Virus record (IMG/VR): IMGVR_UViG_3300038478_000018
Span: 1-57,321 of that record
Length of the DNA stretch: 57,321 nucleotides
DNA from: a virus
Lineage: Duplodnaviria > Caudoviricetes
Strand: one strand, 5' to 3'
Position 1 is the first letter of the stretch. Each line of letters opens with the position of its first letter. The notes beneath the pieces were generated by a model. The model was given only the letters and a program-made list of their open reading frames with translations. It was not told the origin of the DNA and made no database searches. Below are positions 5,385-21,643 of the stretch, in pieces. The translations under genes were made by a program, and so were the position numbers.

Positions 5385-6044
5385 TCAGATCAGACCACTG
5401 CCGCCAGAGGCGCCCACCGCGGCCGGGGCCGCGCCATCAGCCTCGCCGCTAACTAGCGAGAACTCGCTAGTGCTTGCCACGGGGGACCCGGCCAAGTGTG
5501 CGTCGTGACGCAGGAATTGCACGCCCAAGAGCGTGCTTGAAATTCCCTTGCCTCCTGTCAGATGATCATACGCCCAGAAATCGACAATCACGTTAGCGCG
5601 ACAGCCGGCGTAGGGGTACGAAGGATGTCCGGGCGTCAAGGAGCCGTCCTGGGTTGACAGGTTGATTCCGGCATCTGTGACCACGACATTAGGCTGCACG
5701 GAATTGCTCGCCGAAATGTAGAGCATACCAGCGAACTCCGGCTTCCCCGCTCGGGTGATATCGCCCCGGTGCAAAGCGAGCTTATCTTGCGCGGCGATTT
5801 GAGTAAGTACCTGCTCGGCGTCACTCTTCCACTTCTTCACGGCCGCAGCACGCATAAGCTCCTTGATGCGAGCTAGCTGTGGGTGAGTGGGTGCAAGGAT
5901 GAGGTCGGCGCGATACTTGCCAATCGGCTTGCCGGTCGCGGGGTCGATCTTTGCGTCTTTGCCGACGTAAGGCCGAATCAGCGACACGAACGCAAGGCGC
6001 ACATCTTGTATCATCAAAGTCAAAGGTTGATTGATTTCAGTCAT
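5385..6044 (-). CDS. ssb: Single-stranded DNA-binding protein (DUF2815)
   Basis: DVRLAF...YAGCRANV...GKGISSTLLGVQFLRHD signature. Confidence 0.88.
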   Translation of the reverse strand: MTEINQPLTLMIQDVRLAFVSLIRPYVGKDAKIDPATGKPIGKYRADLILAPTHPQLARIKELMRAAAVKKWKSDAEQVLTQIAAQDKLALHRGDITRAGKPEFAGMLYISASNSVQPNVVVTDAGINLSTQDGSLTPGHPSYPYAGCRANVIVDFWAYDHLTGGKGISSTLLGVQFLRHDAHLAGSPVASTSEFSLVSGEADGAAPAAVGASGGSGLI

Positions 6045-6105: not shown

Positions 6106-6321
6106 TCATCCGCAAAACCTTAAGTTACCGTTGGGCGCGTCATAATACGCGGGGCAATCGTCTCGCTCTTGCCGCTTCAAGTTCTCCTGATCAAAGCTTT
6201 GATTCTTGGGCCTATGTGGCAGCCCCTTGGATTCTGAGTGCAAGCCGCCGATAGCGGCACAGAGTACGAGCAAAAGCGCGAGCGCATAAAGCGCCATAGC
6301 TACCTTAAAGGGCAGTCTCAT
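6106..6321 (-). CDS. Small membrane-anchored protein
   Basis: N-terminal hydrophobic helix. Confidence 0.5.
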   Translation of the reverse strand: MRLPFKVAMALYALALLLVLCAAIGGLHSESKGLPHRPKNQSFDQENLKRQERDDCPAYYDAPNGNLRFCG

Positions 6322-7507
6322 TCAAAACCTCGAATTGTGTCAGTTTGATCGGATCACGCTTATCATTCTCAGGTACCAGCGTCGGCGCGCCATCGGCCTG
6401 ACCTACCAGTTCTTTGAGAGCATCCATGCTCTTGTAGGCTTTCTTACCGATGACGCGCTCAATCTCCGTGGGGCTTACGAGCGCCCGCGGCTCGTAGAGC
6501 TTATCGTCCGGCACCGTCAACCCTAGCACCTCTTCCGCCTTCTTGGCATCCTTCCAGAATCGGCGCCCACGATTACCCTGTACAAGCTTGAATCCTTGGA
6601 TAGCGCGCCCCTGCAGCGCGCGGTCGTAGGCTTCCTTGCGAAAATCATGAATCGCGCTCTCAAGTTCATCTAGCTTGACATAGATATCCGCAAGCGTTAT
6701 ATCGTCGATCTCATGCTTGACAGCCAGCACTTGGAACATATCAACGATACGCTTAGCCCTAGCCGGGCACGAGCCCCGCACGGGGCACCACATGCACTGC
6801 TCTTCGCCCGCGTTTAGGTGGAAACGGGGGTCAAACGATTCGTTTCCGTAGTATAGATCGTATGCGAGCTTAGCAGCAGGCCGAATAATCGAAATGAAAT
6901 GCTCGATTTCCGCTCTGCTATAGGTCCATTCGTCGTAGTGATTGAGTCGCGGCTGATGGATACAGAACCTAACAGCCATGAACGGCGATAGGAGGTCGAA
7001 CTCGTATAAAGCGGCAGATCCATAAATAAGCCCCTGCAATTGGTTCTTAGCCCAGACAATATGCCCGGCCCCGTCTTTCAAGTCATGTACCGAGATCACG
7101 CCCTTATGCTCAACTCCGTCTATGACAACACTGCCCAACGGGTCTAAAGCTACACAATCCGCGTGCCCCGCTTGGTCCTCTATCCCCAGGATGGGGCTCG
7201 TATTCAGACGGTGCTCAACGAAGCGGTGTGAAGCTGGCTCCCGCAGCACGTTGTTAGCATATGCAAGCGCTCGGTCAATCCTATCTTGGTCAATTGTGAA
7301 CGTAAATCCTTCGACTATGTGCGTGTCCCCGACCTTGGGCGCACCCAAACCTTTCAATAGGCTCTCGCCGATGCTGTGCGTGCAGGTGCCGCTAGCGGCA
7401 TCTTTGCTTGCCTTCTTGTCCCGTCCCTTGGACAAAAGCAAGGCGCCCGCGCACCGCGCCCAGCGGGCGGCGTCGGAAGGCGCGAGCAGGGAGTGGGTGC
7501 CGCTCAT
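6305..7507 (-). CDS. DUF2800 Cas4-like PD-(D/E)xK exonuclease
   Basis: HSLLAPS..RWARC, GHADC, DLKDG, CMWCPVRGSC; ATG 7507 overlaps upstream TGA. Confidence 0.88.
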   Translation of the reverse strand: MSGTHSLLAPSDAARWARCAGALLLSKGRDKKASKDAASGTCTHSIGESLLKGLGAPKVGDTHIVEGFTFTIDQDRIDRALAYANNVLREPASHRFVEHRLNTSPILGIEDQAGHADCVALDPLGSVVIDGVEHKGVISVHDLKDGAGHIVWAKNQLQGLIYGSAALYEFDLLSPFMAVRFCIHQPRLNHYDEWTYSRAEIEHFISIIRPAAKLAYDLYYGNESFDPRFHLNAGEEQCMWCPVRGSCPARAKRIVDMFQVLAVKHEIDDITLADIYVKLDELESAIHDFRKEAYDRALQGRAIQGFKLVQGNRGRRFWKDAKKAEEVLGLTVPDDKLYEPRALVSPTEIERVIGKKAYKSMDALKELVGQADGAPTLVPENDKRDPIKLTQFEVLNETAL

Positions 7508-7914
7508 CCGATCTCCCGTGTCAAATCCCTCAGCGCCTCGCGCATCGTCGGCTGCTGTGATCCGTACTCGTAAAATGGCGCCAAGAGCCGCGCTACGGTC
7601 GCTATCTTCAAGCACGCATTACGGTTCCTATCCCCGCCGGCTTGTGCTCGGTACTCGGCTGCATGGGCTTTAAGCTCCTCTTGGTAGCGAAACGCCGCAT
7701 CGTCAATGTACTTACGCCACCACTTCTCGGGCCCGTAGCCGTTATGCTGCCGATAGCCGTGCTCTGCCTCGTGCGCTACGATCGCGGGCGGCAGGAAGTG
7801 GCCGCCTGGGTTGTAAATAATATCCCCAAAGGCGTAAATCACGCCGGGCGGCCTGTTAGGGAACGCCCGGCGGATCTCTTCGAGCATCGGAGGCTCTGCG
7901 ACCTCGATCCTCAC
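7504..7914 (-). CDS. HExxH zinc-metallopeptidase-like protein
   Basis: AHEAEHGYRQ...EELKAH. Confidence 0.6.
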   Translation of the reverse strand: MRIEVAEPPMLEEIRRAFPNRPPGVIYAFGDIIYNPGGHFLPPAIVAHEAEHGYRQHNGYGPEKWWRKYIDDAAFRYQEELKAHAAEYRAQAGGDRNRNACLKIATVARLLAPFYEYGSQQPTMREALRDLTREIG

Positions 7915-8908: not shown

Positions 8909-9147
8909 GCTGCCTCCTTAATGGCTTCATTCGCAATCTGCCGCGCTTGCGATGTATCGACTTGGGTCGCCCAGGAGAACTCCCGCACGACCACATCGTA
9001 GATCGCCTCCTGCACCGCAATGACCGCAAGCACGTAGGAGTTATGCTCCGTGCCGCCTTGCGCTAAGTTCGCTTCGTACTGCCGCCGCGCGATGCGTTGC
9101 AAATACGCCCGCGTATGGGGGTTAAAGTTGATCATTTCTGTATGCAC
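8905..9147 (-). CDS. Hypothetical protein
   Basis: Coupled ORF in leftward operon. Confidence 0.6.
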   Translation of the reverse strand: MHTEMINFNPHTRAYLQRIARRQYEANLAQGGTEHNSYVLAVIAVQEAIYDVVVREFSWATQVDTSQARQIANEAIKEAA

Positions 9148-9968
9148 GCGGTCACGGGCGCGGGCTTACCCGCCGCCTTCTTGTGCTTGATGACGGGTTT
9201 GATCACCGTCTGCGGGGCTAGCACAGGCGATTGCTCGGGCATCACGGCCGCAACCGGCAGCGGGGTTTGAATGACTACGACAGGCACCGGGGCCGGAGCG
9301 GGCTGCGTCCATATGGATTCGCACGTCTGCCCCGAATCTTTTAACGCCTGGGCCAAGCCTTTATCATTAGCAATACGATAATGACAGCCGGCCAGAGGAC
9401 TAATCTGATCGGCCAAGTGCGCTTTTTTGATGAATTCGCAGTTTTTATCGCGCTTCGTATGCCCAAGTGATATACCAAATATACCGGTCTGCGCGCCAGC
9501 GGATTCAGAACCCAGGCAAGTATCGATGCCTGACGTAAGGGCGGGGGCATACGCTGTCGATACAGGGATACGCGATGACTCATAGTTCTGTGTAACCCCC
9601 TGCACATTACCCGTATCCTGCGCGCTAGCCGCACCGCCCGTGCCGCCTTCCGCGGTCTGGCTCTGCTTTTGCTGCTGAGACTGATTGCCGCCTGTCGCGG
9701 TCAAGGGGCCGATGTTGACGTTGCTTGTGCCGCCCACGCCTACCGCATTTGCGCTACCGCCCGTAGCTTTGCTTGTGCTATTCGAGCTGCTCGCACTCAC
9801 GGCGCCAGCGGATGAACTGCTCGTGGCCGTAGTCGCGGGTTTCGCATTGAGTGCCGCCGTAATTGTTGCGGCGCACACCGGGTTGCCGTATTCTGAGGGT
9901 AGGCTACAATCGCAAGCCATCACGCGGCTAGCCCCAAGGATCAAAGCTATCGCAATTCCAGTTTTCAT
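9132..9968 (-). CDS. Secreted or periplasmic Cys-containing protein
   Basis: Signal peptide; TAYAP..TCLGS..Q...FGISLG...DKNCE motif; Pro-rich tail. Confidence 0.7.
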   Translation of the reverse strand: MKTGIAIALILGASRVMACDCSLPSEYGNPVCAATITAALNAKPATTATSSSSAGAVSASSSNSTSKATGGSANAVGVGGTSNVNIGPLTATGGNQSQQQKQSQTAEGGTGGAASAQDTGNVQGVTQNYESSRIPVSTAYAPALTSGIDTCLGSESAGAQTGIFGISLGHTKRDKNCEFIKKAHLADQISPLAGCHYRIANDKGLAQALKDSGQTCESIWTQPAPAPVPVVVIQTPLPVAAVMPEQSPVLAPQTVIKPVIKHKKAAGKPAPVTACIQK

Positions 9969-10063
9969 TTACGTCAAGCCCCCAATTTTGGTAAAAAACG
10001 CCACCACAGTCAGCAACGACAGCAGGGGGTAGAGCCAGTTATTCAAGAATTTGTCGCTCATCT

Positions 10064-10960
10064 TTAATCTCCAGGTTGATTTAACGCGGAGAAATTGTCC
10101 GCTTTCCACGGGCGGATTGCAAGAGACTTAGCTCTCACTTTTTGCACTTTGTCGAAAAGCTCTTGGCTGATAATCGCCAATTCGGGCGCCTGCCTCACCG
10201 ATAGTGGTTCTGGGCGCCGTATACGCACCCTACGGGCGCTGTCGCGGGCGGAGCTACGGACCTCGTTCGCCCCATAGATCACCTCGCCCAGATACCTTCT
10301 ATTGCGCAGGATCGCCCTTATGGTCGAATCCGCCCACGCCCCGCCGCGAGGGGCCGGCACCCCGGCCCGGTTTAGGTGCGCTGCAATATAGTTAGCTGGC
10401 TTACCAGCGGCCGCCCAGCTGAAGATATCCCGTATAATCGTCGCCTGAGCCACGGAGACGCTCCAGGAGCCGTCCGGGTTACGGGAGTACCCAAAGCAGC
10501 GGCCCCCCGTCGATAAACCGGCCAGGGCCTTGCCTTCAAGGCCGCGGCGGGTCTTATGGGAGATATCCTTGCGCAGGGCCTCCGCTACCGCGTTTTTGAT
10601 GCCGAGTATCAGTCCCCAGCCGTTGCGGCGAGTGTCATCACCCACCGCGGTTATCAGATGTATTCCGATATCTTCGAGCTCGGCGGATCTTGATCCGAAT
10701 TCGCTTCGGCTGCGCCATAGGCGGCTAATGTCCTCAACCACAATTATATCGAATAACTTAGCGCGTGCCGTGGTCAGGAGCGCCTGGTAGCCGGGTCGCT
10801 GATCGGTGCCGCCGCTGATACCCCGGTCCTCAAAGCGGGTCACCAGCTCAAAGCCCTCAGCATCCACGATACGCTGACAGATGCGCATCTGGTCCTCGAT
10901 ACTGGCGTCACGCTGGTTTTCCGTAGAGTACCGGGCGTATATGACGGCACGCAGTTTCAT
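10064..10960 (-). CDS. Serine recombinase (catalytic and recombinase domains; no zinc ribbon or coiled coil)
   Basis: IYARYST catalytic Ser, EDISRLWR, W..STIRAILRNRRYLG, AIISQELFDKVQ. Confidence 0.92.
   Translation of the reverse strand: MKLRAVIYARYSTENQRDASIEDQMRICQRIVDAEGFELVTRFEDRGISGGTDQRPGYQALLTTARAKLFDIIVVEDISRLWRSRSEFGSRSAELEDIGIHLITAVGDDTRRNGWGLILGIKNAVAEALRKDISHKTRRGLEGKALAGLSTGGRCFGYSRNPDGSWSVSVAQATIIRDIFSWAAAGKPANYIAAHLNRAGVPAPRGGAWADSTIRAILRNRRYLGEVIYGANEVRSSARDSARRVRIRRPEPLSVRQAPELAIISQELFDKVQKVRAKSLAIRPWKADNFSALNQPGD
10094..10122 (-). promoter_or_regulatory. Sigma70-like leftward promoter in the 3' end of the recombinase gene
   Basis: TTGCAA-17-GACAAT, GCG before the -10. Confidence 0.5.
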
Positions 10961-10994
10961 TGCCTTTCATCCTCGCCGCTGCATTTTAGACACT

Positions 10995-11189
10995 TCATGG
11001 CTTCTCTACGGCATCAACAGTAGATGCTTCGTCGCCGTACACCTTTGCCTGCGTGAAGGTGAACCGCCCGTAATAGCGGGAGCGCATATTCTGCTGCTGG
11101 CAATAGGCACGTGCCCCAGCCTCGGTGGCGTAAAGGCGATCAAATTCGGGTTGGCCATCGATTCGGCACCACACAATAAAAACGTTCAT
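10995..11189 (-). CDS. Small hypothetical protein
   Basis: GAGG SD, ATGA coupling. Confidence 0.65.
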   Translation of the reverse strand: MNVFIVWCRIDGQPEFDRLYATEAGARAYCQQQNMRSRYYGRFTFTQAKVYGDEASTVDAVEKP

Positions 11190-11338
11190 GACTTCGCCTC
11201 TCCGTTTTCCACATCCGCCACTTTCAAGTCAAACTTAGCCTTGCACTCAAGCGTCACATGCTCGATTAGCGTGCCGGGCTCGGTCACTTCGAACTTAGTG
11301 GTCACGGTACAGCCTTGGCGCGTCTGTTGGATATTCAT
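11186..11338 (-). CDS. 50-aa hypothetical protein
   Basis: Hand translation MNIQQTRQGC...GEAKS; coupled at both ends. Confidence 0.55.
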   Translation of the reverse strand: MNIQQTRQGCTVTTKFEVTEPGTLIEHVTLECKAKFDLKVADVENGEAKS

Positions 11339-11535
11339 TCGGCTTGCCTCTGACACCACATAGGGCGTTCTAGATTATCGGCGCCGGGCGCTTCCTTGGA
11401 GGCGGGCTCGTGCCGTGTATCGCGGAACGCGTCCGTTATGCGAATGCGCGCCGTGTCAGTAAGGCCGATGCTCGCGGTAGTTTCGCTGCGCGGAGCGCGG
11501 CGGTTGATCTCTGCTAAAATGTACTTGTTGCTCAT
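11335..11535 (-). CDS. Small hypothetical protein
   Basis: ATGA coupling. Confidence 0.5.
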   Translation of the reverse strand: MSNKYILAEINRRAPRSETTASIGLTDTARIRITDAFRDTRHEPASKEAPGADNLERPMWCQRQAE

Positions 11536-11750
11536 AGTAGGTCGGTATTATCCGCGCCCTGTGGCGCCTTGTCAATGCCGCGCTCTACCATATTCGTGAG
11601 CAAGTTCACAAAATTGTCAATCTCGCACTCTAGTTGCTTGGGTAACGTCCGAGGCCGGCTCACGCCTACAGCACCGATAATAGCGCGCATCGCGGGTAGC
11701 GATAAGTCAACGATCAACTCGCGCTGCGTCAATATCTTTTCAACTCTCAT
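11532..11750 (-). CDS. Small hypothetical protein (starts in a dyad site)
   Basis: MRVEKILTQ...; ATG 11750 lies at the edge of a 25-bp repeat. Confidence 0.65.
   Translation of the reverse strand: MRVEKILTQRELIVDLSLPAMRAIIGAVGVSRPRTLPKQLECEIDNFVNLLTNMVERGIDKAPQGADNTDLL
11547..11575 (-). promoter_or_regulatory. Sigma70-like leftward promoter
   Basis: TTGACA-17-GATAAT. Confidence 0.65.
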
Positions 11751-11964
11751 CGGGTTCTCTTTGAGGCACCGAATTGCGGCTACGAACGAAATAACCATCG
11801 TTGTAGGCGCACAGCAGTTCAGTGCACAAGATAAGGGCGCTTCGTTCACGCCACACTCGGAACAGCACTCGCGTGCCCGTGCCCGCACGGATCGCGTAGC
11901 GCAGCCCTTCGCGCTTCCAGCGATAACGCTCGTGTTCGCCTTCCGCTTCAACTGTTCGCATCAT
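11740..11964 (-). CDS. Cassette gene, hypothetical
   Basis: MMRTVEAEG...SVPQREPDES, bounded by 25-bp repeats. Confidence 0.65.
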   Translation of the reverse strand: MMRTVEAEGEHERYRWKREGLRYAIRAGTGTRVLFRVWRERSALILCTELLCAYNDGYFVRSRNSVPQREPDES

Positions 11965-12136
11965 CGACTCCCTTTTGAGGACTCGATTTAGGCGGCAGGT
12001 CGTTACGCATGCCAAACAGATATTTCAAACACTCCCGGTCGTACTCCGAAAGACCCATGACGCCGGACACACGGTGTAACGCCTCATCGACCTTAGCTTG
12101 CTTCTCCGGATCCGAAAGCTGGTAGATGGTGCTCAT
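11948..12136 (-). CDS. Cassette gene, hypothetical
   Basis: Ends SSPQKGVDDANS through a repeat. Confidence 0.65.
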   Translation of the reverse strand: MSTIYQLSDPEKQAKVDEALHRVSGVMGLSEYDRECLKYLFGMRNDLPPKSSPQKGVDDANS

Positions 12137-12396
12137 TCTTCGACTCCCTTTTGAGGCACCGATTTGATCGCCTTTCGCAACTGGCCTATTACTTCATCGC
12201 GCCGCCAGCGCGGCAGACGGATCAGTTCTCGGTAGGCGCTGACAATGGAGGCGGCAAGGAATCTATCTTTCACGAGTTGCTCGGGATTGGCGTAGCGCAA
12301 GCGCCATTCAAGGCTGGTCTCGGCCTCATCCATAGGCGTGGGCCATGTGCCGCCCTCGGTCATCACAGCATATTTGCCACCGGCTAACACTTTCAT
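12133..12396 (-). CDS. Cassette gene, hypothetical
   Basis: Ends SVPQKGVEE through a repeat. Confidence 0.7.
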   Translation of the reverse strand: MKVLAGGKYAVMTEGGTWPTPMDEAETSLEWRLRYANPEQLVKDRFLAASIVSAYRELIRLPRWRRDEVIGQLRKAIKSVPQKGVEE

Positions 12397-12605
12397 TGAT
12401 CGAGTCCTTTTTGGGGCACCAAGTTACCGTCGTCATCGTGGAATTCCCACCATAGATCGCACAAGCGCCCAGTGGCCTCGGCGGGCCATCCGTTTTCGCG
12501 GCACCATCTAAGCCATTCAGCGCATTTGCGTGCCGCGTTTGATGTGGGGTTGCGGCCATCCTGCCATCCGTCATTAGGTGCACCCGGCCATGCTAGTTCA
12601 CTCAT
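12393..12605 (-). CDS. Cassette gene, Trp-rich hypothetical
   Basis: MSELAWPG...LVPQKGLDQ; in-frame upstream ATG at 12683 is also possible. Confidence 0.65.
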   Translation of the reverse strand: MSELAWPGAPNDGWQDGRNPTSNAARKCAEWLRWCRENGWPAEATGRLCDLWWEFHDDDGNLVPQKGLDQ

Positions 12606-12706
12606 TATCGTTGCTTCCCTTGGGAACCGATTTCCTGTCCTCACACTTCGCTGTGTAGGCTGCATTGCGCGCAGCTTATCCATGATCGAGTCCTTTCTGA
12701 GGCGTA

Positions 12707-12985
12707 TCAGTTTGCACGTTGGTCTCCTGTATCCATTGCCGCCTCACCTAGCGTCTGCGCGCCTACCGAGCTCATATCGCCGCCCGCGGCGTTAATGAGC
12801 TGCGCGGCGGCGGCCCTGAGCGCGTTCACAAGTTCCGATGCCATCACGTTCGCCCGTGCGGCCACGGTCACGGCGTACAGGTGCCCGTCCGATTTGAAGG
12901 CTAGCGTGATCGCGTCCGTGCCTTCCTTCTCGTCATGGTCGGTGCGTACATCGATACACCGCCAGACGGACTTAGTTTCGGTCAT
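12707..12985 (-). CDS. Hypothetical protein
   Basis: GGAGG SD, ATGA coupling. Confidence 0.65.
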   Translation of the reverse strand: MTETKSVWRCIDVRTDHDEKEGTDAITLAFKSDGHLYAVTVAARANVMASELVNALRAAAAQLINAAGGDMSSVGAQTLGEAAMDTGDQRAN

Positions 12986-13263
12986 GCCGCCTCCGCTCGC
13001 TTCGCATAGTATCCATGTCGGGCCTCAACGAGTGCTTGGTGATTGGAGACACACCGCGGCGCGCCATTCTGTCGCAACGCTGTCGCCATCTTATCCGCCG
13101 TCCGCGCCGCCCGTTTCGCGGCGTTGATACCTAGCTTCATGGGCCCTTTGCTAGAATCCCAGATCAGGCGCGCTTTGGTGCTGATGCGGGGGGCGCGGTA
13201 CTCGAGCCAAATATCGCGGTCAGGGTAATCCTGGCCGGGAAACCAGTTTTGCGAGGGGGTCAT
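12982..13263 (-). CDS. Hypothetical protein
   Basis: Coupled ORF. Confidence 0.6.
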   Translation of the reverse strand: MTPSQNWFPGQDYPDRDIWLEYRAPRISTKARLIWDSSKGPMKLGINAAKRAARTADKMATALRQNGAPRCVSNHQALVEARHGYYAKRAEAA

Positions 13264-13865
13264 TTTTTAGGCGCCTTAACGCATACTTTAGCCATCACGA
13301 GCGCCGCCGCATACTGTTTAGCGTACAGACTCCTAGCGCCGTGGGTTTTCTTGACCGCCTTGATCAACTCAGCGCGCGTACCGCTAAAGCAGCCGGTAGT
13401 GTAACGCACCGATATCTTAGCGTCCGCATGAACGGTCAGAAAACTGTTCCGCGACCCTATCGGGCCAACCAAGAGAGAATCAACATTGCCGCAGACCCGG
13501 GCATTGCCGCAGACCCGGGCATTGCCGCAGACCCCGGCATTGCCGTAGACCCAGGCATTGCCGTAGACCCAGGCATTGCCGCAGACCTGGGCATCGCCGA
13601 AGACCCGGGCATTGCCGAAGACCCGGGCATTGCCGAAGACCCAGGCATCGCCGTAGACCTGGGCATTGCCGTAGACCCGGGCATTGCCGCAGACCCCGGC
13701 ATTGCCGCAGACCCAGGCATCGCCGTCTTGAGATAGATTCTTGGCGTCGGCTATCCATCCGCCCACGGCGCCGATAGCGACCGCACCAAACGCGGTCACG
13801 GCACGTATGCGCCAAAGCTTAATGCCTAGTTCAACTTTACTCTCGCCGGTGAATTCGTATTTCAC
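13260..13865 (-). CDS. Hexapeptide-repeat (left-handed beta-helix-like) phage protein
   Basis: MKYEFTGE...RIRA...GGWI N-terminus, G[ND]AxV[CYF] x13, GCFSGT C-terminus. Confidence 0.85.
   Translation of the reverse strand: MKYEFTGESKVELGIKLWRIRAVTAFGAVAIGAVGGWIADAKNLSQDGDAWVCGNAGVCGNARVYGNAQVYGDAWVFGNARVFGNARVFGDAQVCGNAWVYGNAWVYGNAGVCGNARVCGNARVCGNVDSLLVGPIGSRNSFLTVHADAKISVRYTTGCFSGTRAELIKAVKKTHGARSLYAKQYAAALVMAKVCVKAPKK
13485..13724 (-). repeat. 13 tandem 18-bp repeats
   Basis: GGCRATGCCNRGGTCTNC units. Confidence 0.92.
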
Positions 13866-14017
13866 GCTGCCTCCGCATAGTATATCTTCCCATCAAGCCC
13901 CAGTTCAAAGGCGCGGCCGGTCCGTAAATACTCGTTCAGAATCTCGCGCTCGGCTTTATCCACCAAGAATGAGCTGGCCAAATTCTGCACCATTCGCCGC
14001 ATGTCTTCGTTGCTCAT
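13862..14017 (-). CDS. 51-aa hypothetical protein
   Basis: Hand translation MSNEDMRR...YYAEAA; GAGG SD. Confidence 0.55.
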   Translation of the reverse strand: MSNEDMRRMVQNLASSFLVDKAEREILNEYLRTGRAFELGLDGKIYYAEAA

Positions 14018-14235
14018 ATAAACCTCTGCGTGATGCGCTCAAACTTAAAGCAAGCTGCCTGTACGCGATAACGCCAACCCCGGTAAAATAACGTTGGGCG
14101 CACGCTGCCATCCTTGCGAATCTTGTGGAACTGAATTCCGCATAATGCTTGGATACCGTGGCTAACCCAGGTGCTAGGACGAAACTCATACTTTAGGCGT
14201 AACGCGCCGTCACCGTGAACCGCTAAGACACTCAT
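14014..14235 (-). CDS. Hypothetical protein
   Basis: GAGG SD; first ORF after a promoter. Confidence 0.55.
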   Translation of the reverse strand: MSVLAVHGDGALRLKYEFRPSTWVSHGIQALCGIQFHKIRKDGSVRPTLFYRGWRYRVQAACFKFERITQRFI

Positions 14236-14267
14236 GTTTCTGACCCTCAGTTACCTAACGCGAGCCA

Positions 14268-14296
14268 ACTATACGCCCCAACGCGCGCCGAAACAA
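14268..14296 (-). promoter_or_regulatory. Sigma70-like leftward promoter with upstream TGTGA half-site
   Basis: TTGTTT-17-TATAGT; TGTGA at 14309-14305. Confidence 0.55.
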
Positions 14297-14321
14297 GACC
14301 CGCGTCACAGTTTCCGCCAAT

Positions 14322-14675
14322 TTACTTAAGAGGCGAAGCATCGGCAGGCGCCGAAACAGTAGCAGGACTCGGAGCAGGCGCCGTTGTCGCAGGTGTTTCG
14401 ACAATAGCAGGCGAGACAGCGGAATCGCGGCCCGTCTCTATCTTCGCGATCTGCGCTTTGAGTTCCTTCTCTATCCGCGCCTGCTCCGCCGCCAGATGCG
14501 CCTTGATCCGTTCCCATACGCCCTCCGCCGCTTTGTAGAGATTGTAGCGCCCGATCAACGCAACTTGGTGCGGATTATCGGTTTGGTTAACAGAATTACC
14601 GGGGTTCGGCTCCATCTCAAACGCCTGCTTGATCGCACCCGCGATCAGCTGCACTTCTTTGGAAATTATGTTCAT
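14322..14675 (-). CDS. Hypothetical coiled-coil protein
   Basis: AGGAG SD, coupling. Confidence 0.65.
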   Translation of the reverse strand: MNIISKEVQLIAGAIKQAFEMEPNPGNSVNQTDNPHQVALIGRYNLYKAAEGVWERIKAHLAAEQARIEKELKAQIAKIETGRDSAVSPAIVETPATTAPAPSPATVSAPADASPLK

Positions 14676-15442
14676 TTTGCATTGACTCCTGTGAATTCTA
14701 ATGTCCCGGCCCTAAGCCGTTTGGCTATATCAATCTTTCGCTCTTCCGTATCCCATATCGCCTTCTGTACTTCGGCGTCCGCGGGCGTTGTCACCTTACG
14801 CTTGTACCTGATCGGCATATACGCGTAAAACCACATACATCTAAAGCACGGGGGGCAGTCCTTCGTGCCTCTAGGCGGCAGGGAAAGCTTCGCCAATTCC
14901 CGATCTATACGTACCGGCTTCTTATCTTTCGTCAAGCTATCCGATTCGCGCGCCACCGTTCGCAATACCTTTTGGCGCTCGAAGCTATCGGGCATTAAGT
15001 ACTTAAGCTTCGTTAACTTGCGCTTCAATGACGGCGTAGGCTCCCCTGTACCGTTTACTATGCCGGGCACTTGCGCGCGCTCATCGGGCGTCAAGAGCCG
15101 CATCAGCTCCTCGACGGCGCTTTTAGCTTCCGCGGCTTGGGCTACCGGATCGGGTAAGTGTTTCGACATCATCTCGTTGAACTCCTGCGCGCTCATCATC
15201 GGATCTTGCTTTTGCTTTGACCCCTGTTTATACAATCGGCGCCTTGCGTCCCGAAGCGCCATGTCGAACCACTCCTCCAGCGTATACGACGGGTCGTATT
15301 TAGCTCTATGCTCCCAGCACCAAGCGAGCGCCGTTGCGATTACATCGTCCCGATTAGGCCCGTGAAGTCCGCGCAAGTGCCATGTGCCGCGCTTCGAGGC
15401 GCGCGCCAAGGATAAAACGAAGCTTTCAACAGGGTTCGTCAT
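14672..15442 (-). CDS. ECF sigma-factor-like protein (region 2-like)
   Basis: RDDVIATALAWCWEHRAKYDPSYTLEEWFDMALRDARR resembles ECF region 2; LLTPDERAQV resembles the start of region 4; start uncertain (15442 or 15505). Confidence 0.55.
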   Translation of the reverse strand: MTNPVESFVLSLARASKRGTWHLRGLHGPNRDDVIATALAWCWEHRAKYDPSYTLEEWFDMALRDARRRLYKQGSKQKQDPMMSAQEFNEMMSKHLPDPVAQAAEAKSAVEELMRLLTPDERAQVPGIVNGTGEPTPSLKRKLTKLKYLMPDSFERQKVLRTVARESDSLTKDKKPVRIDRELAKLSLPPRGTKDCPPCFRCMWFYAYMPIRYKRKVTTPADAEVQKAIWDTEERKIDIAKRLRAGTLEFTGVNAK

Positions 15443-15542
15443 TGCGTATAGTAGACCATCGCAAGAAGTATGAGTGCAAGGGAGAATACAAGAAGCTGCA
15501 CACAACCTAGTATGTGCTTACGAAATACTTCGTCCTCATCCT

Positions 15543-15845
15543 TCATACTTTACGGCCGAGATCGATATCGGATCGCGCGTGCAAGATGCCGGCGCTCACT
15601 ATCGCTTTGAACTCCTCCGGTATCTTACCCTCCATGTCATCGCAGGCTTTCGAGAATACGCGGCACATTTCCCATAATGCATTCGACACTAGATGGCTGT
15701 TGAAGGCTTCACACACCAAACGCCTGATATCCTGCGAGCCATCGCCCGAGAACTTGAAGTTCTTGAGTCCTATATCGCGCACATGAATCTGCACCAGCTG
15801 GCTCGTAGCATCGCCGATGAGATTGGGTTTCGGGGTGTCGGTCAT
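15543..15845 (-). CDS. Hypothetical protein
   Basis: Coupled ORF. Confidence 0.6.
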   Translation of the reverse strand: MTDTPKPNLIGDATSQLVQIHVRDIGLKNFKFSGDGSQDIRRLVCEAFNSHLVSNALWEMCRVFSKACDDMEGKIPEEFKAIVSAGILHARSDIDLGRKV

Positions 15846-16090
15846 TTCGCGAACGCCAAGGGGTACACAGCAACAAGATAGGAGCGCAGCTCCTCAACGG
15901 TTTTGCTGCGCCACTCCGAGGCCAAGGAAAAGTTAAAATTAGTGCCGTTAGCATCGGTCATACGAGCCTCAATACCCCCTGTGTGCGTGTCACAGTACAC
16001 TTCGCACGAGGCTACGGTGTGGCCAGCCTCTACCGCTAGTTGACGTGCCAGCACCCCCGCGCGCGCTGCGGTTACTAGTTTATCACTCAT
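15842..16090 (-). CDS. Hypothetical protein
   Basis: GGAG SD, coupled to primase stop. Confidence 0.6.
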   Translation of the reverse strand: MSDKLVTAARAGVLARQLAVEAGHTVASCEVYCDTHTGGIEARMTDANGTNFNFSLASEWRSKTVEELRSYLVAVYPLAFAK

Positions 16091-18657
16091 ACTAAATCTC
16101 CGTTAATTGGTTTCAATACCCAGCGAGCGCCAGCCCGCGCGTCGCGTCCGCCGCGAATAAGCTTATACCCGCCGCCAATCTTATCCCTACAATTTCTAAG
16201 CCAGTAGCCCAGCTTCGCCGGGTTCAGGGGGTCCTGGCAGCCGGCGGCTATCAGCAGTTGGCTTAAGTTGCCGTCCGTATCAGTAAATCCGCCGCATAGA
16301 TCGCGTAGCGACAGAGCGTAGAACTCGCGCCCAGCGAAATGAGCGCCCAGCGCTTTGAACGCCTCGCCAACAGCATCAGCCTCGTCATCCGTTTCCTCTA
16401 TTTGCGTCTCTACCGGATCGGGCATGCCTAGCCAGATGAGCGGTTCGCGCACAAAATACGACCAATCCTCAAATGCGGGCAGCGGCACAGGCATGGCATC
16501 GCTTGCGGCGTTTCGCTGCCACCCCACGATAACCGTCAGCGCCGCCATCAGCAGCCTAACTCTATGCGTTCGTGCATAGGCGCGCAGGTCCGGGATCTTG
16601 AATCGGCGCTGCTTACGCTCTACGCTATTGGCGTCTAGCCTTATGACTATGGAGCGGCGGGCCAAGTCCCCGACGGGCGTTATATTATTACCCGTCCCTG
16701 AAACGACCGCGCGGTTGGGAAGCTTGATCAACTCACTCCCGCCTAGCTTCCGATCCCCATATCTTGGGCTGGTAAGAAATAAGCACAACTCCGCCAGTCT
16801 CACCTTACAGCCCGAGGGTATGTTATCGAAGAGGATGGATCTATCCCCTATCATCAGGGAGGCAAATAGCGTCTTACGGATCTCTTCCGAATTGGAAACC
16901 CACGGCCGCGTCGCGGGCTGCACGCCGTGAATGATGATGCTTGGCATCTCGGAGAGCAAGGATTTGCCCGTCCCGGGGTCCGGTGCCGTGTAGAAGAACA
17001 TGGGCGATGTGCGTAGCGCCGAGCGCGCGGCTTCGGTTAGTATGTGCGCGGCAAATGCCGACTCGGCAGACGCGGATGCGTAGGGGATCTCGCGAAAAGG
17101 CGCAAGTAGCGTGGTCAACGCCTCTAGCGCTGTGTCGCGAGTTATGGCATCCGGTAGCTTAGGGAAATCCGCGTTCTTCATCAAAAAGACGCTGCTCGCC
17201 GTATCATATCCTTCATCCTCGCATACCGAGCCGTCCAAGCGCACGAAGGGCGCGCGTGCAATAGCCTCTATTTCACGCACGCGCGGCCAATCGCCCATTG
17301 ATATGATCGACATAGCTACGTCCAACGGGCAGTCGGCGGGGCGCCAGCTTTTCGTGCGGCCGTCGTACTTCACAAAATCCGCTATATCACCCAACGTCAC
17401 GCGCACGTAGGCAGGCGATATGCGCAAGATAGATCGATAATCGCCCCTGCGTACCGTGCCGTCTATCTCTTCGTCCGGCCGCCCGATGCGCACGAGCGAT
17501 GAGCCTTGCTTGTAGGCAACCGGCGCGAGGATGCCCGTAGCTTGCTCGACGATGTTGTGGAGCTGCCCTTCGCTGAGACGGACTTGCGGTTTTTCCGGGG
17601 GCGGGGCTTGCTCGATATCCAAGGGGTCCTTGGTATAAGCGCCACGGCCATCGCTCTTTGAGTCGCCTCCAGTCCACACAACCGGATCAAAAGCGGACGT
17701 AGGAGCTGCAGCACCGTATCCGAGGCGTCGGGCGAGCGTGAATATGTGTCGGTAATCAGTTCTAGGAGCCTGATCAGCGTGCGCAGCCCACCAGTCTTCG
17801 GGGGCGTTAACGGCATAGCTTTTGACATCTTTACTCCACTCGCAAAATAGATCCTTACCTTGGGGTCCTAATGATAGCAGCGCGTAGCCCACCTCAGACC
17901 ATGCATCGTTATCCGCGCAGCGTTCGCGCAGCTTCGGCCACCAGAGCGCGTCCATTAAAGCAGCGGCGCCCTCCTCGCTGATGCTCATAGGGGGGGTTTC
18001 TTGCGGTTGATCGCTAGGTATGGGTTGTAGCTTCATGGGTTCTTCAACGCCGAACGTGCTTTGCAAGCCGCTCCACATGAGTTCAAACTCTTCTCGCGAA
18101 TAAACTTTCACGGTTACGGGGAGCTTCGGTTGCCACTCGTACCTAGCGCCTGACGGATGCGCGCCAATCAGCAGCGCCTGCTGCCCGTCGCCAAGAAACT
18201 CAATGCGCCCGTGCGCTGTTTTGATGATGCGCTTATCGATCGCAGGGTTGCCCTCAATTTGAACCAGCACTAGGTATTTAGGCGAGTTGGCGCGCGTGCG
18301 ACGCGACCCCGCAATCCCAGTTTGTATGAGCCGCGCCTGCTGCTCATCCTCCACATCTACGTCAACTGCATATACGCCGCTGATGCTGCCGGTCCTTACG
18401 CATATGCCTAATCGCGGATCTTGCCGCCACAGCGCCACTTCGTTATCCAGAATAGGCCGCGTAGCCCAATCTTTGAGTCCGTGCGCCTGCCCCTGTGCGT
18501 TATATGCACTAGGGACTTTGCCGAACTTTTTGATTTTGCTGTTGTGCGCAACTACGGGGCTAGGCTCGCACACTACGGGCAATAGATTACCGTGCAAGCC
18601 CAGCACTTCGCTAAACCAACCCCACTCAGCAGGCGTCGCACCCTTATTCTCCGCCAT
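16087..18657 (-). CDS. Primase-polymerase / PriCT-2 / P-loop helicase fusion
   Basis: GICVRTG...VDVDVED...GAHPSGARYEW prim-pol; WSEVGYAL PriCT; PGTGKS Walker A, LFDN. Confidence 0.87.
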   Translation of the reverse strand: MAENKGATPAEWGWFSEVLGLHGNLLPVVCEPSPVVAHNSKIKKFGKVPSAYNAQGQAHGLKDWATRPILDNEVALWRQDPRLGICVRTGSISGVYAVDVDVEDEQQARLIQTGIAGSRRTRANSPKYLVLVQIEGNPAIDKRIIKTAHGRIEFLGDGQQALLIGAHPSGARYEWQPKLPVTVKVYSREEFELMWSGLQSTFGVEEPMKLQPIPSDQPQETPPMSISEEGAAALMDALWWPKLRERCADNDAWSEVGYALLSLGPQGKDLFCEWSKDVKSYAVNAPEDWWAAHADQAPRTDYRHIFTLARRLGYGAAAPTSAFDPVVWTGGDSKSDGRGAYTKDPLDIEQAPPPEKPQVRLSEGQLHNIVEQATGILAPVAYKQGSSLVRIGRPDEEIDGTVRRGDYRSILRISPAYVRVTLGDIADFVKYDGRTKSWRPADCPLDVAMSIISMGDWPRVREIEAIARAPFVRLDGSVCEDEGYDTASSVFLMKNADFPKLPDAITRDTALEALTTLLAPFREIPYASASAESAFAAHILTEAARSALRTSPMFFYTAPDPGTGKSLLSEMPSIIIHGVQPATRPWVSNSEEIRKTLFASLMIGDRSILFDNIPSGCKVRLAELCLFLTSPRYGDRKLGGSELIKLPNRAVVSGTGNNITPVGDLARRSIVIRLDANSVERKQRRFKIPDLRAYARTHRVRLLMAALTVIVGWQRNAASDAMPVPLPAFEDWSYFVREPLIWLGMPDPVETQIEETDDEADAVGEAFKALGAHFAGREFYALSLRDLCGGFTDTDGNLSQLLIAAGCQDPLNPAKLGYWLRNCRDKIGGGYKLIRGGRDARAGARWVLKPINGDLV

Positions 18658-18755
18658 CTGTCTCTACCGTATGCTCATAGCCGTCGTAATCTGCGGGCAC
18701 TTCCGGGAAGCGCCAATCTAGAGGCGGGGTCATTTCTTCTGGGTCCTGCATTTAG

Positions 18756-19277
18756 CTATTTATACCGAGCTTCCAAAAGATCGGCATACTCGCGCGCCTC
18801 GGCTGCAGAGATGGCCACACCGTAAGAGCACCAGCCGTGGCTTTGTATGGCCTTAGCGCGTAGAATAGCGATCACGGTCTCATCGCGCTGTGCTCCACCC
18901 CCACTAGACAACGGTACCCAAGTACCCTTACAACTTTCCCGCCTACCATGTACTGTACCATGGACTGCGCACGTACCTAGCCTATCATCTTCCGGGTGCG
19001 CAAACGCTTGCGCCCCCGGCGCGTCAACTTCATACTTCTCGCGCTCGCTTATCACACATATCGTGGCGGGGGTGGTATAAAGCCGCGCGAATATGCCGAA
19101 CATACCCAGCTCCGGCACAACTGTCACTTCGTCGGGTAAGTCCGCGGCCTCAAACACTAGTTGCATGTGGTTCTTGGGGCTTGTAAGCAACACTCGAATG
19201 GTGCGAGCGAACTTAGGCTTGCGCCAAGTACCTACCTTGGTGAAAGTTTCCGCAGTCACGGTATAACCCCTCCCCAA
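18756..19277 (-). CDS. Hypothetical protein
   Basis: ORF in leftward operon; start may be GTG 19259. Confidence 0.55.
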   Translation of the reverse strand: MGRGYTVTAETFTKVGTWRKPKFARTIRVLLTSPKNHMQLVFEAADLPDEVTVVPELGMFGIFARLYTTPATICVISEREKYEVDAPGAQAFAHPEDDRLGTCAVHGTVHGRRESCKGTWVPLSSGGGAQRDETVIAILRAKAIQSHGWCSYGVAISAAEAREYADLLEARYK

Positions 19278-19543
19278 AGCAAACTGTTGCCGGCATCGGC
19301 TGCCTGCGGCGCAGGCGAGCTGCCCGGCTGATCCTTAGGCGGCCCCGCTATTTCCCGCCACCGCACGCCTCGCTCCACGTGCGTTACGTAGCGCGTCTCG
19401 CCGGGCCCTAGGATGCAAAGTCCAACCCACGTATCGTCGATGCTCGTGCCTTGATAGTGAAGCTTATTGACGATTGCGGGCAGCGGTTCATCGTGGGGTT
19501 GATAGCGGTACTCAACGATCATGCCGATATACGGTGTAGTCAT
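19256..19543 (-). CDS. Small beta-rich (SH3-like) phage protein
   Basis: PYIGMIVEY...PAIV motif; GGAGG SD. Confidence 0.65.
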   Translation of the reverse strand: MTTPYIGMIVEYRYQPHDEPLPAIVNKLHYQGTSIDDTWVGLCILGPGETRYVTHVERGVRWREIAGPPKDQPGSSPAPQAADAGNSLLWGGVIP

Positions 19544-19546
19544 AGA

Positions 19547-20398
19547 CTATGCCTCCGTCAAATGCAAGAAGGCCGTGCCTGGTGCCTTCATTTCAATCAG
19601 TATCTGCACTACGTCCTCACCAAACTCTGCGAGGATCGAATCTCGCTTTTCGGCGGCGTTGGCGGCGTAGGCGGCGGCGTTGGCGGCGTAGGCGGCGGCG
19701 TTGGCGGCGGCGTGGGCGGCGTAGGCGTCGTCGGCGGCGTAGGCGTCGTGGGCGGCGGCGTGGGCGGCGTAGGCGTCGTCGGCGGCGGCGTAGGCGGCGT
19801 GGGCGGCGTAGGCGTCGTCGGCGGCGGCGTGGGCGTCGTCGGCGGCGGCGTGGGCGGCGGCGTGGGCGGCGGCGTGGGCGGCGTAGGCGTCGTTGGCGGC
19901 GGCGTAGGCGGCGTAGGCGTCGTCGGCGGCGGCGTAGGCGGCGGTTTTTGCCTTATTAGCGCTTTCTATCGACGGGTCTGAGGAGCAAAGCGTAGCCGCT
20001 TCAATCAGTGCGATCCTATGCGCACCTTTAGCTTTAGTGGCCGCCGCGTTCAATGCAATTGGCGCATATTTTTGAATAGCCAGTGTAGAGCATTTGATGG
20101 CGAACTCTTTGTCATCCAACACGCCTGCGCTGCCCAGCTGCGCGATCGCCAGCCTGCGTAGTCCTTTCGTGCGCGCTTCATCAGATGACCATTCGGAGTC
20201 GTTGAGCCTAATCTTCAAGGCTCGCAGCGCGGGAGATACGCATGTGGGCTGGTCCGAATGCGGCAGGCCCATCGCATAGCATACAGCCGCCTCAACGCAC
20301 ATCTGTCCTGGCACGGGTTGTCCCATGCCGGCAACCAAGCCCGCGTCCACGACGGTCAACACCTTTTTAGCAAGCTCTAAGTCAATTGCGGCGGTCAT
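19547..20398 (-). CDS. Phage protein with Ala-rich low-complexity repeat
   Basis: MCVEAAV...HSDQPTCV...LND motif followed by a (AA[YDHN])n tract. Confidence 0.8.
   Translation of the reverse strand: MTAAIDLELAKKVLTVVDAGLVAGMGQPVPGQMCVEAAVCYAMGLPHSDQPTCVSPALRALKIRLNDSEWSSDEARTKGLRRLAIAQLGSAGVLDDKEFAIKCSTLAIQKYAPIALNAAATKAKGAHRIALIEAATLCSSDPSIESANKAKTAAYAAADDAYAAYAAANDAYAAHAAAHAAAHAAADDAHAAADDAYAAHAAYAAADDAYAAHAAAHDAYAADDAYAAHAAANAAAYAANAAAYAANAAEKRDSILAEFGEDVVQILIEMKAPGTAFLHLTEA
19651..19944 (-). repeat. GCC/NAC codon repeat tract
   Basis: Almost only GCC, TAC, GAC, CAC and AAC codons. Confidence 0.85.
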
Positions 20399-20562
20399 AT
20401 CAGGTCCTCATTGGCAGTTGGTTCACGTTCATCGACGAGCGTATATGTTTTTACTCTGTCGCGCGAGCTAAATAGTTCGCGTCTGTGATCTATGCACAGT
20501 TTGGTGTGGCTGTGTCCTTGCGTTTCGGTGCGGATGCAGCCGCAGGGTTCCTGCACGATCAT
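20395..20562 (-). CDS. 55-aa Cys/His-rich protein
   Basis: Hand translation MIVQEPCGC...HSHTKLCIDH...NEDLI; ATGA coupling. Confidence 0.5.
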   Translation of the reverse strand: MIVQEPCGCIRTETQGHSHTKLCIDHRRELFSSRDRVKTYTLVDEREPTANEDLI

Positions 20563-20638
20563 CCGGCTATCCAGGCGACTACCGCTACGTATACAATGAT
20601 AAGCCAGCTGATCGTGCCTAAGATTACTTCGGGGCGTC

Positions 20639-20839
20639 TCATGTCGGCTCCTTGCCTTCCGTGATGGGTTTTAGCTCGGTCAGGCCGAACATTATCGACT
20701 CCGCCTCGCGCAGGCGCGCCCGCTTCCATACACCGGGCATGCGTTGGGTGCGCTCCAGAGCTTCGCGTACGTCGCGCTGGTGCGCGGTTTCGTATTCATT
20801 TAGCGCCCTACGCGGCCGCGGACCCTTAGGCTTATCCAT
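20639..20839 (-). CDS. First early protein, hypothetical
   Basis: GAGGT SD just downstream of a promoter. Confidence 0.65.
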   Translation of the reverse strand: MDKPKGPRPRRALNEYETAHQRDVREALERTQRMPGVWKRARLREAESIMFGLTELKPITEGKEPT

Positions 20840-20860
20840 ACCTCGCCTCGCTGTAATTGA

Positions 20861-20900
20861 CCTATATTCTTAAAATACGCGTGCCCAGGGCAGATGTCAA
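20861..20900 (-). promoter_or_regulatory. Major leftward sigma70-like promoter
   Basis: TTGACA-17-TATTTT; shares 20 bp with 8706-8725. Confidence 0.75.
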
Positions 20901-20951
20901 CCATCGGGTGCTAGCGTCGGGAAATAGGTGTTGTCCACCTAGCGGTTGAAA

Positions 20952-21070
20952 AATGATGATACATTGATACATAATGATACATAGGCGCAACCCCGCGTAT
21001 GAAACTGGCAATGACATCTACTATACTAAACTCTCAGGGGATGTCTCATCATCACTCATGTATCATCATT
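20952..21070. repeat. TGATACAT x3 plus 13-bp inverted repeat (candidate origin)
   Basis: AATGATGATACAT 20952-20964 and ATGTATCATCATT 21058-21070. Confidence 0.7.
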
Positions 21071-21142
21071 ACGCTCGCTTGACCCTCTTGCGTGATGTTC
21101 GGGGCTCTTTGAAGCCGTTCATCGTGCTCTGTGCCCTTGAAG

Positions 21143-21592
21143 TGTGATGCAGTTCACACGTTGTAAGAAAGTGTGATGTAGTTCACACTTAGCGTGTCCT
21201 GTGTCCTCAAAGTGTGATGTAGTTCACACTTAGCGTGTCCTGTGTCCTCGGAGTTGGGCCGCCAAGCAGCAAAGTGTGACGTAGTTCACACTTTTTAGGG
21301 CCGTTGTCACTCGATTTTTCCTTACATAAGTCGCGCAATCCGCGCCCCCGGTTTGCTGATGGGCGGGTTCTGGGCGCTCGGCTCTGGGACCTGGGCTCTG
21401 CTGCGCTGCACCCCGGACATAATCACGCAGGAGTATGTCAAAACCCCCAAGGCAACGCCTGGATTGTGATGGGCCCTCGATCGTCGCGCCGCGGCCAGGA
21501 TCGGTAACAAGAAAGTGAGAACCAGATCACACTTCTAGTGTGAACTGCGTCACAGATATGAAATAAATATTCGATTTGTGACGCAGATCACA
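21143..21592. promoter_or_regulatory. Seven CRP-family boxes TGTGA-N6-TCACA
   Basis: Cores start at 21143, 21172, 21213, 21275, 21516 (TGAGA), 21539, 21577. Confidence 0.85.
21168..21249. repeat. Perfect 41-bp tandem duplication containing a CRP-like box
   Basis: 21168-21208 = 21209-21249. Confidence 0.92.
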
Positions 21593-21643
21593 CTTTTAAA
21601 TCTCAATTCCCGCGTTTACTATACTGGAGAGGCGTGATCGCCC

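Follow-up and report, generated by a model that had tools for sequence, protein, structure and literature searches.

A 25-nucleotide (nt) motif recurs six times at consecutive gene junctions in the viral record IMGVR_UViG_3300038478_000018 (IMG/VR; Duplodnaviria, Caudoviricetes), and these six sites are a real, non-random and recurrent element. Each copy is read, mostly in one fixed frame, as roughly the final eight codons of the gene upstream and contains the ribosome-binding GGA(G) of the downstream gene, with a stop codon and an ATG that overlap or are separated by a few codons at most. The same motif is found in viral contigs of other lineages; it is a standard gene junction and probably also acts as a boundary sequence for the exchange of single-gene cassettes by short-homology recombination using the phage's own functions. 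The window, meaning the whole stretch of DNA analysed, is the entire viral record of 57,321 base pairs (bp), with a CheckV completeness of 99%, and is contained in sequencing runs of peat metagenomes. The left 21 kb, encoded on the minus strand, carries primase, DNA polymerase, helicase, a Gp2.5/Enc34-type single-stranded DNA-binding and annealing protein and a DUF2800 exonuclease, with the remainder carrying structural genes on the plus strand. The array lies in the middle of the minus-strand operon with the primase module on one side and the exonuclease module on the other.

The six junction sites of the window

The initial annotation had listed six 25-mers on the minus strand separated by units of 78, 208, 260, 176 and 214 bp, and all six were recovered with every unit length confirmed. 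The copies are confined to 961 bp and are absent from the rest of the 57-kb genome. A degenerate pattern allowing up to one mismatch gave 5 matches against 0.10 expected, with none of 100 dinucleotide shuffles reaching 5. A weight matrix was derived from 24 sites, all in other contigs and none in the window; with it five window sites scored between 26.7 and 39.6, the best non-site position in the genome scoring 8.3; over 200 shuffles the maximum per shuffle averaged 8.3 and the overall top was 23.5. The site at 12607 is a weak variant, scoring 9.2 with this external matrix where the five others are strong, and its first 16 nt are identical to those of a site at 460 in contig L005. Other studies have yielded contigs that span sites 3, 4 and 6 in the same arrangement as the window assembly (site 4 by X3 record 5 and site 6 by X3 record 4), and in run X7 one contig has 26 nt of site 4 in other surroundings.

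The first array gene (12707–12985, minus strand like all genes and sites of the array) encodes a protein of 92 amino acids (aa) belonging to no family; it has no motif upstream and is followed by site 1 (12685–12709, score 26.7), the first three bases of which are its TGA stop. One nt past site 1 comes the ATG at 12683, opening a 96-codon open reading frame (ORF; 12393–12683) that comprises the 78-nt unit between sites 1 and 2 and a 70-aa gene starting at 12605. Site 2 (12607–12631, score 9.2) is of an SVPKG class without the Gln codon and lies inside the 96-codon ORF in another frame, with the ATG at 12605 next. Site 3 (12399–12423, score 34.5) encodes the upstream tail ...LVPQKGLDQ*, the stop of which overlaps, as ATGA, the ATG at 12396 of an 87-aa cassette gene (12133–12396; phrog_3472, of unknown function). 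Site 4 (12139–12163, score 39.6) encodes the ...SVPQKGVEE* of this 87-aa gene, with the stop overlapped by the ATG at 12136 of a 62-aa cassette gene without family (11948–12136). Site 5 (11963–11987, score 34.4) encodes the ...SSPQKGVDDANS* end of the 62-aa gene, and within it begins the ATG at 11964 of a 74-aa cassette gene, likewise without family (11740–11964). Site 6 (11749–11773, score 27.4) supplies the ...SVPQREPDES* end of the 74-aa gene, and within it begins the ATG at 11750 of the 72-aa backbone gene to the right of the array (11532–11750), which is conserved in relatives with and without the motif. The backbone gene to the left of the array encodes 93 aa (12982–13263).

The initial annotation had each site ending at the next ATG and most sites supplying a Shine–Dalgarno-like run. 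The six ends lie −2 to +2 nt from an ATG, in each case the start of an ORF of 62–96 codons, and GGA(G) is found 6–7 nt before it. As the annotation also stated, the four larger units hold one gene each, and the 78-bp unit has no gene of its own. The shared protein ending (V/S)PQ(K/R)(G/E) that it described stands in a single frame at 12399, 12139, 11963 and 11749 but does not extend to the sites at 12685 and 12607.

Anatomy of the motif across lineages

Exact-pattern scans, in the case of the metagenomes with a single strict pattern, identified the motif in four IMG/VR contigs and 14 JGI metagenome contigs. A set of 18 other contigs together with the window yielded 30 non-redundant sites. Every copy is on the coding strand. 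One frame of the motif, reading S-x-P-Q-K-G-(V/L)-(D/E), is the longest open upstream frame at 26 of the 30 sites, the remaining four being one tie at a contig start and three sites at which it is not the longest (12016 in L009, and 12685 and 12607 in the window). The upstream frame stops no more than four codons past the end of the motif at 25 sites, with the stop often inside the opening ATGA or ATGAGTGA of the next gene. Likewise, 25 sites have a start codon −2 to +5 nt from where the motif ends, with an open frame of 30 codons or more. In all, 28 starts were identified, ATG being used in 27, with GGA(G) 6–7 nt ahead of the start codon. At three sites the start is 17–26 nt further on with a second GGAGG, and at two (L002 8288 and L009 11732) there is no start, the frame continuing into a short in-frame unit that ends in another copy. 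As a result, any two ORFs joined by the motif keep a stop, a ribosome site and a start at suitable distances, with tight translational coupling inside one operon.

The initial annotation had given an ATCG-N17-CGAT dyad with inner CC/GG. Across the sites the dyad, TCG-N3-CC-N7-GG-N3-CGA, is only partial and is centred on a single base. Five of its nine symmetric pairs, those of the outer TCG/CGA and the inner CC/GG, hold in most sequences; conservation does not extend to the terminal pair or to the three pairs that separate the outer and inner blocks.

A number of further observations concern individual copies. The sequence ATGAGTGA opens many cassette genes, for example at L001 10139, L002 8093, L011 2172 and 2335, and window 12605, and thereby provides a TGA stop for the upstream gene in the frame of the motif; a backbone gene of the motif-free contig L033 (at 6866) also opens with it. 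The in-frame units between two motif copies in L002 (8288–8390) and L009 (11732–11873) are 78 and 117 nt long and extend the upstream protein by a Cys/His-rich stretch ending CDCG(A/V); the 78-nt unit of the window between sites 1 and 2 equals the L002 unit in length and is not similar to it in sequence. A decayed copy at L009 11322–11346, immediately after the stop codon for a 158-aa protein that matches the Mom family below threshold, keeps the left half and the centre of the motif and has lost the right half. Similar half-decayed copies are present in L005 (1062), L007 (1788) and L011 (2518), and in L016, where the P codon of a PQKG tail is at 935 in the reverse complement of the locus.

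The array as an insertion and the distribution of the motif

Relatives of the window were reached through alignment of the exonuclease, giving 18 loci, with a search based on the primase finding none. In the closest relative, L033, core proteins are 53–80% identical to those of the window, and the homologue of the left backbone gene (12982–13263) runs straight into that of the right one (11532–11750), with five genes and all six sites missing. The interval between these backbone genes is 20 nt in L033, 314–1225 nt in six other relatives, about 1.2 kb in the window and 2.4 kb in L009 and L012, where it is filled with a different motif array. No site scoring above 14 was found in the loci of the 18 relatives, and the whole records of four of them (three 100% complete) gave no match with up to two mismatches, a search in which the window gives four. 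The motif precedes 11532–11750 in the window and not its homologue in L009, and it follows the homologue of 12982–13263 in L009 and not the window gene. On these comparisons the array is an insertion at a variable spot. The motif is sporadic among relatives; it thus goes with accessory cassettes and does not belong to the core regulation of the group.

Beyond these relatives, motif-bearing contigs from peat and soil viruses represent at least nine lineages, and about nine by our count, besides that of the window. Many carry arrays of three to seven copies abutting starts, and most have no detectable protein in common with the window, some having a helicase at 27–38% identity. Among the cassette genes of other contigs are those for a C5 DNA methylase, a DUF1643 protein and a DUF551 protein. 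A search of prokaryote genomes totalling 596 Gb gave no match to the motif, none of 50,697 deposited phage records matched a 31-nt site, and the motif did not turn up in the literature searched.

Gene exchange at the motif

Comparison of motif-bearing contigs places the limits of homology within the motif. Contigs L001 and L003 are 95.9% identical over 7.4 kb in an alignment that ends inside a motif copy, and past it L003 matches, at 99% identity, a cassette of L009 located after a different motif copy. A small membrane-protein cassette is 93% identical between L001 and L009 over a stretch that begins within one motif copy and ends shortly after the following one, with the other genes of these two contigs having no detectable relation except for two further small cassettes. 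In L001, L003, L005 and L009 the gene after this membrane-protein cassette is a different one each time. L005 and L009 agree at 100% as far as the motif and have no relation after it, and the similarity between L002 and L007 begins at the first base of the motif. In L019 a 90%-identical homologue of the 87-aa gene of the window lies in an ordinary, motif-free context, the nucleotide match to the window running from the ATG of this gene to 4 nt into site 4. The L001-type arrangement was seen in six contigs and the L009-type in two, and with this recurrence in independent contigs the two arrangements are not assembly artefacts. The gain, loss and exchange of single genes at the sites, as put forward in the initial annotation, is borne out by the homology breakpoints in the motif, by the L019 match and by the absence of the array from L033. 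A second, different junction repeat was sought in the motif-negative contigs L019, L037, L044 and L045 and rejected, only short two-copy matches being found.

Constraint on the nucleotide sequence

Codon usage within the motif differs sharply from that of the long genes of the genome. The Ser codon is TCG in 22 of 22 cases (24% in the long genes), the Gly codon GGA in 27 of 28 (11%), the Val codon GTC in 14 of 14 (22%) and the Leu codon CTC in 10 of 10 (21%), with CCG, used for 39% of Pro codons in the long genes, occurring at none of the 30 Pro codons of the motif. A PQ(K/R)G tail written with other codons was never found at gene ends. The tail is absent from all 49 homologues of the 87-aa gene, which have a common body to ...AIK and then diverge, and P0002, an 84%-identical homologue encoded on a 57,489-bp contig, has no motif tail. 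In one trio of homologues the two array copies end AVPQKG... and the copy outside an array ends nine residues earlier. The tail, on this comparison of homologues, is a dispensable add-on for the proteins. With frozen codons and a dispensable tail, the constraint acts on the DNA or RNA sequence with the peptide carried along.

Searches for hairpins, promoters and a motif-specific factor

The alternative raised in the initial annotation of a translational hairpin, that is an RNA structure masking the ribosome site, is unsupported by covariation and was rejected. Across the 30 sites the nine proposed pairs are paired in 72.2% of cells as against 72.9% after shuffling, with 370 of 500 shuffles equalling or exceeding the observed value, and the covariation score is 0.117 against a shuffled mean of 0.124. 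Among the six window sites, the one at 11963 alone has a stable predicted hairpin (z −3.5), the other five giving no better folds than their shuffled versions. No Rfam family was matched in 11000–13500 at E≤1, none of the 17 promoter-like sites in 9000–23000 lies at a motif site and no terminator-like match was found at the motif sites. The best sigma-70-like promoter in 9000–23000 is at 11547–11575 on the minus strand (TTGACA, 17 nt, GATAAT, 11/12), within the end of the 72-aa backbone gene and just upstream of a 66-aa ORF (11335–11535).

The search for a factor restricted to motif-bearing genomes, limited by the fragmentary contigs, found no such protein. Two candidates were considered and set aside. 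The 92-aa first array gene has homologues elsewhere in L009 and in the motif-negative relative L044, the 18-kb locus of which is motif-free. A small protein at 21644–22009 (plus strand) is present in all five relatives searched, four of them motif-free in the whole record and the fifth, L044, in its locus. It is unusually well conserved, being 64–70% identical in these five and 68% identical in L009, where the core replication proteins are 44–47% identical to those of the window. No Pfam family matches it, and its C-terminal part resembles excisionase-type DNA-binding domains by eye.

The neighbouring serine recombinase

A short serine recombinase of 298 aa, with Resolvase and Recombinase domains only, is encoded at 10064–10960 on the minus strand, its gene ending 789 bp from the array in agreement with the distance of about 0.8 kb given in the initial annotation. 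It is without the C-terminal part of the large serine integrases and matches positions 86–358 of the 651-position phrog_95 profile. The initial annotation had suggested it as the enzyme acting at the sites, and had named beforehand a motif distribution independent of the recombinase as the finding that would speak against this. The two distributions proved to be independent. Homologues of similar length occur in four of the 18 relatives, L033 (65% identity), L047, L048 and L049, none of which has the motif, and L033 keeps the recombinase in a record that is motif-free throughout. The motif-bearing loci L001–L018 (139 kb with redundancy) gave no recombinase match at E≤10, the recombinase-free L012 spans the syntenic stretch from primase to DNA polymerase, and a Resolvase domain was found in neither of the two motif-bearing viral records (54–59% complete). 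The suggestion is refuted by this lack of co-occurrence, and the recombinase is regarded as a neighbour outside the system, probably functional itself given the conservation of its length in L033 and in the homologues L047–L049. A crossover site of the res, hix or att type should occur with its serine recombinase, whereas here relatives carry either the recombinase or the motif without the other. Such a site consists of two inverted half-sites around a central 2-bp crossover; the dyad of the motif is centred on a single base, with five of nine symmetric pairs kept in most sequences. The search for tyrosine recombinases (PF00589) found no match in the 99%-complete genome, the control being positive in 14 of 14 genomes.

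Proposed mechanism and alternative explanations

Exchange by short homology would use either the direct repeats within one genome or the same repeat in co-infecting phages. The likely actors are the phage's own recombination functions, namely the Gp2.5/Enc34-type single-stranded DNA-binding and annealing protein (5385–6044, minus strand), the DUF2800 exonuclease (6305–7615, minus strand) and endonuclease VII, a further member of the phage recombination toolkit present in the genome. Phage T7, which has recombination proteins of the same type, deletes DNA between direct repeats of this length. Exchange between copies within a genome would give deletions, duplications and circles, and cassettes could be deleted, inserted or swapped with their neighbours undamaged, with repeated exchange keeping the motif copies uniform and the neighbouring serine recombinase taking no part. 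A number of points weigh against this proposal. At 25 nt the motif is short for homologous recombination. Homology alone does not explain the partial dyad and the A-rich centre, and a protein bound there may yet be involved. The evidence comes from assembled contigs, those of the four sequencing runs compared showed no deletion or circle joints, which speaks for neither side, metagenome assemblers can misjoin contigs at short repeats, and L003 and L005 are single contigs which could be assembly artefacts. Since every motif lies at a gene boundary and mosaic breakpoints at gene boundaries are common in phages, some coincidence of the two is expected in any case.

An alternative that we consider unlikely is that the motif is a purely translational, start-associated element, recognised by a phage or host factor or by extended pairing with 16S ribosomal RNA, with the breakpoints merely mirroring gene boundaries. 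The fixed position of the motif relative to start codons, the strong preference for ATG, the ribosome-binding core and the sense orientation of all copies are what such an element would show, and there is a parallel in the 13-bp SAS of cluster K mycobacteriophages as described in the available part of Pope et al. (2011; PMC3203893). However, only six junctions in the genome carry the motif, close relatives keep the same backbone genes without it, it is not tied to a given gene (11532–11750 and 12982–13263 as compared with L009), two sites have no start codon and a reading frame that runs on, and hairpin covariation is lacking. It is doubtful, too, whether the arrays are a translational counterpart of the integron in virulent-type phages, with selfish or domesticated cassettes of an ORF plus 25 nt being moved between unrelated phage genomes by a dedicated factor that recognises the partial dyad; were this true, every insertion would supply stop, ribosome site and start, and the motif would be a true mobile-element end instead of passive homology. 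A phage 'integron' in the strict sense, in which a putative site-specific recombinase recognises the 25-bp partial dyad and moves ORF-plus-site cassettes at a fixed crossover, seems improbable. The promoterless ORFs, each with a site after it in one orientation and with n+1 sites around n units, would fit such a system, as would the conservation of the partial dyad across lineages, the identical or near-identical cassettes in otherwise unrelated contigs and the exchange between L003 and L009 within as little as the last 8–9 nt of the motif. Against it stand a 99%-complete genome without a tyrosine recombinase, an only serine recombinase that does not co-occur with the motif, the absence of Resolvase domains from both motif-bearing viral records, the odd 7-nt centre of a dyad whose three middle arm pairs are not kept, and the lack of any protein restricted to motif-bearing genomes in the fragmentary contigs available.

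It is very improbable that the conserved part is the peptide itself, a C-terminal S-x-P-Q-K-G-(V/L)-(D/E) tag for the degradation, sorting or packaging of unrelated small early proteins. A single reading frame at 26 of 30 sites, with variation mostly at third codon positions and in one whole codon, would be expected of a tag, but synonymous codons are frozen, the tail is never encoded in another way, homologues of the same proteins lack it, and the copies at 12685, 12607 and L009 11547 lie outside an evident upstream frame yet keep their nucleotides and the following start. Hardly to be entertained is a role of the copies as operators, also raised in the initial annotation, in which the early operon would be shut off by a dimeric DNA-binding repressor at the dyads. 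A repressor would suit the partial dyad and the conserved small protein at 21644–22009 with its excisionase-like part, but the promoter-like sites in 9000–23000 all lie away from the motif, the small protein is found in five of five relatives that are motif-free in the whole record or, for L044, in the locus, and a fixed phase to start and stop codons is not expected of an operator. Short-homology exchange at a standard junction is the explanation that we favour.

Comparison with known systems

The closest functional analogue is the promoter-early stem-loop (PeSL) cassette known from T4-type phages (Arbiol et al., 2010, PMC2839356; Comeau et al., 2014, PMC4122927). According to the available text of the first of these papers, PeSLs are intergenic elements of about 100 bp with a sigma-70 promoter and a terminator stem-loop, found at the junctions of ORFans in hyperplastic regions, and mediate modular shuffling, for which recombination between repeats is proposed, with mini-circles demonstrated (PMC2839356). 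The two have in common repeats at small-ORFan junctions in variable regions, ending in a Shine–Dalgarno (SD) sequence and a start codon, and insertions, deletions and replacements in relatives that are bounded by the repeats, and the recombination between repeats proposed for both would direct exchange to harmless places. They differ in that the present motif of 25 nt is four times shorter, lies in-frame inside the upstream coding sequence, has neither a promoter nor a conserved stem-loop and acts within one polycistronic message.

The start-associated sequences (SAS and ESAS) of cluster K mycobacteriophages have a 13-bp consensus (GGGATAGGAGCCC) that is symmetric at its outer bases and has AGGAG as its core, and their function is not known (Pope et al., 2011, PMC3203893). 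Like the motif, they are short repeats of one orientation with an SD core and symmetric outer bases, placed a few nt from the ATG starts of non-structural genes of different families, absent from host genomes and without compensating changes for a hairpin. Their sequence is different, however, and they are dispersed over half the genome in contrast to the 1-kb array seen here, with neither a fixed upstream frame nor exchange at the sites being reported for them in the available text (PMC3203893).

The term 'integron-like' used in the initial annotation holds for the layout of promoterless ORFs each with a site and for the variable content, but not for the machinery, there being no tyrosine integrase and no attC-like structure. 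Integron cassettes are promoterless single ORFs, each with a site after it, in one orientation and expressed from upstream, and the attC sites are imperfect inverted repeats of 57–141 bp with conserved core sites that fold as single strands. Here no IntI-type tyrosine recombinase is present, the sites are 25 nt long and translated rather than folded as attC, and the element resides in a phage with its own replication module and no integrase of that type. The array is not an integron, the analogy holding for architecture only.

Bicistronic-design junctions of synthetic biology place the SD sequence of the downstream cistron in the end of the upstream one, with the stop overlapping the start, giving context-independent coupled translation. 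The embedded-SD layout is the same in the motif, with the difference that the former is an engineered part and the latter natural, repeated and linked to exchange. In the 'short conserved boundary sequences' model of phage mosaicism, homologous recombination joins modules at gene boundaries, and such sequences were, in the accessible portion of this source, not findable at most mosaic boundaries (PMC3029335). The motif fits this model, with a boundary sequence that is explicit, present in many lineages and endowed with a built-in translational function.

Other features of the genome

No close relative for the array region was found among the deposited phage records, distant matches all being to a 201-aa repeat protein at 13260–13865 (minus strand). 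This protein has about 14 nine-residue repeats of the GNA(R/W/Q)V(C/Y/F)G type and matches phrog_7964 and phrog_5070, and it gives the sole nucleotide matches to deposited phages, including Acidovorax phage AP1 at 84%. In L033 its gene has shrunk to a 19-codon ORF (6555–6614) retaining only the first and last residues. A 529-aa protein at 24890–26479 (plus strand), very rich in Gly, Ala, Thr and Ser, has a weak match to a tail-fibre assembly family; a guess that it was the terminase was rejected, the protein being glycine-rich and tail-fibre-like, and tblastn against the deposited phages gave zero matches.

Implications for phage mosaicism

The array provides an explicit 25-nt boundary sequence common to phage lineages with unrelated surrounding genes, together with replicated single-gene swaps. 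Recombinants would be viable because the gene end, the ribosome site and the next start travel together. As such the idea embodied in the PeSL would be extended from transcription units to translationally coupled junctions. The motif may also serve as a compact natural part for probing the minimal homology of Gp2.5-type recombination, and it may help to delimit accessory genes in metagenomic phage contigs.

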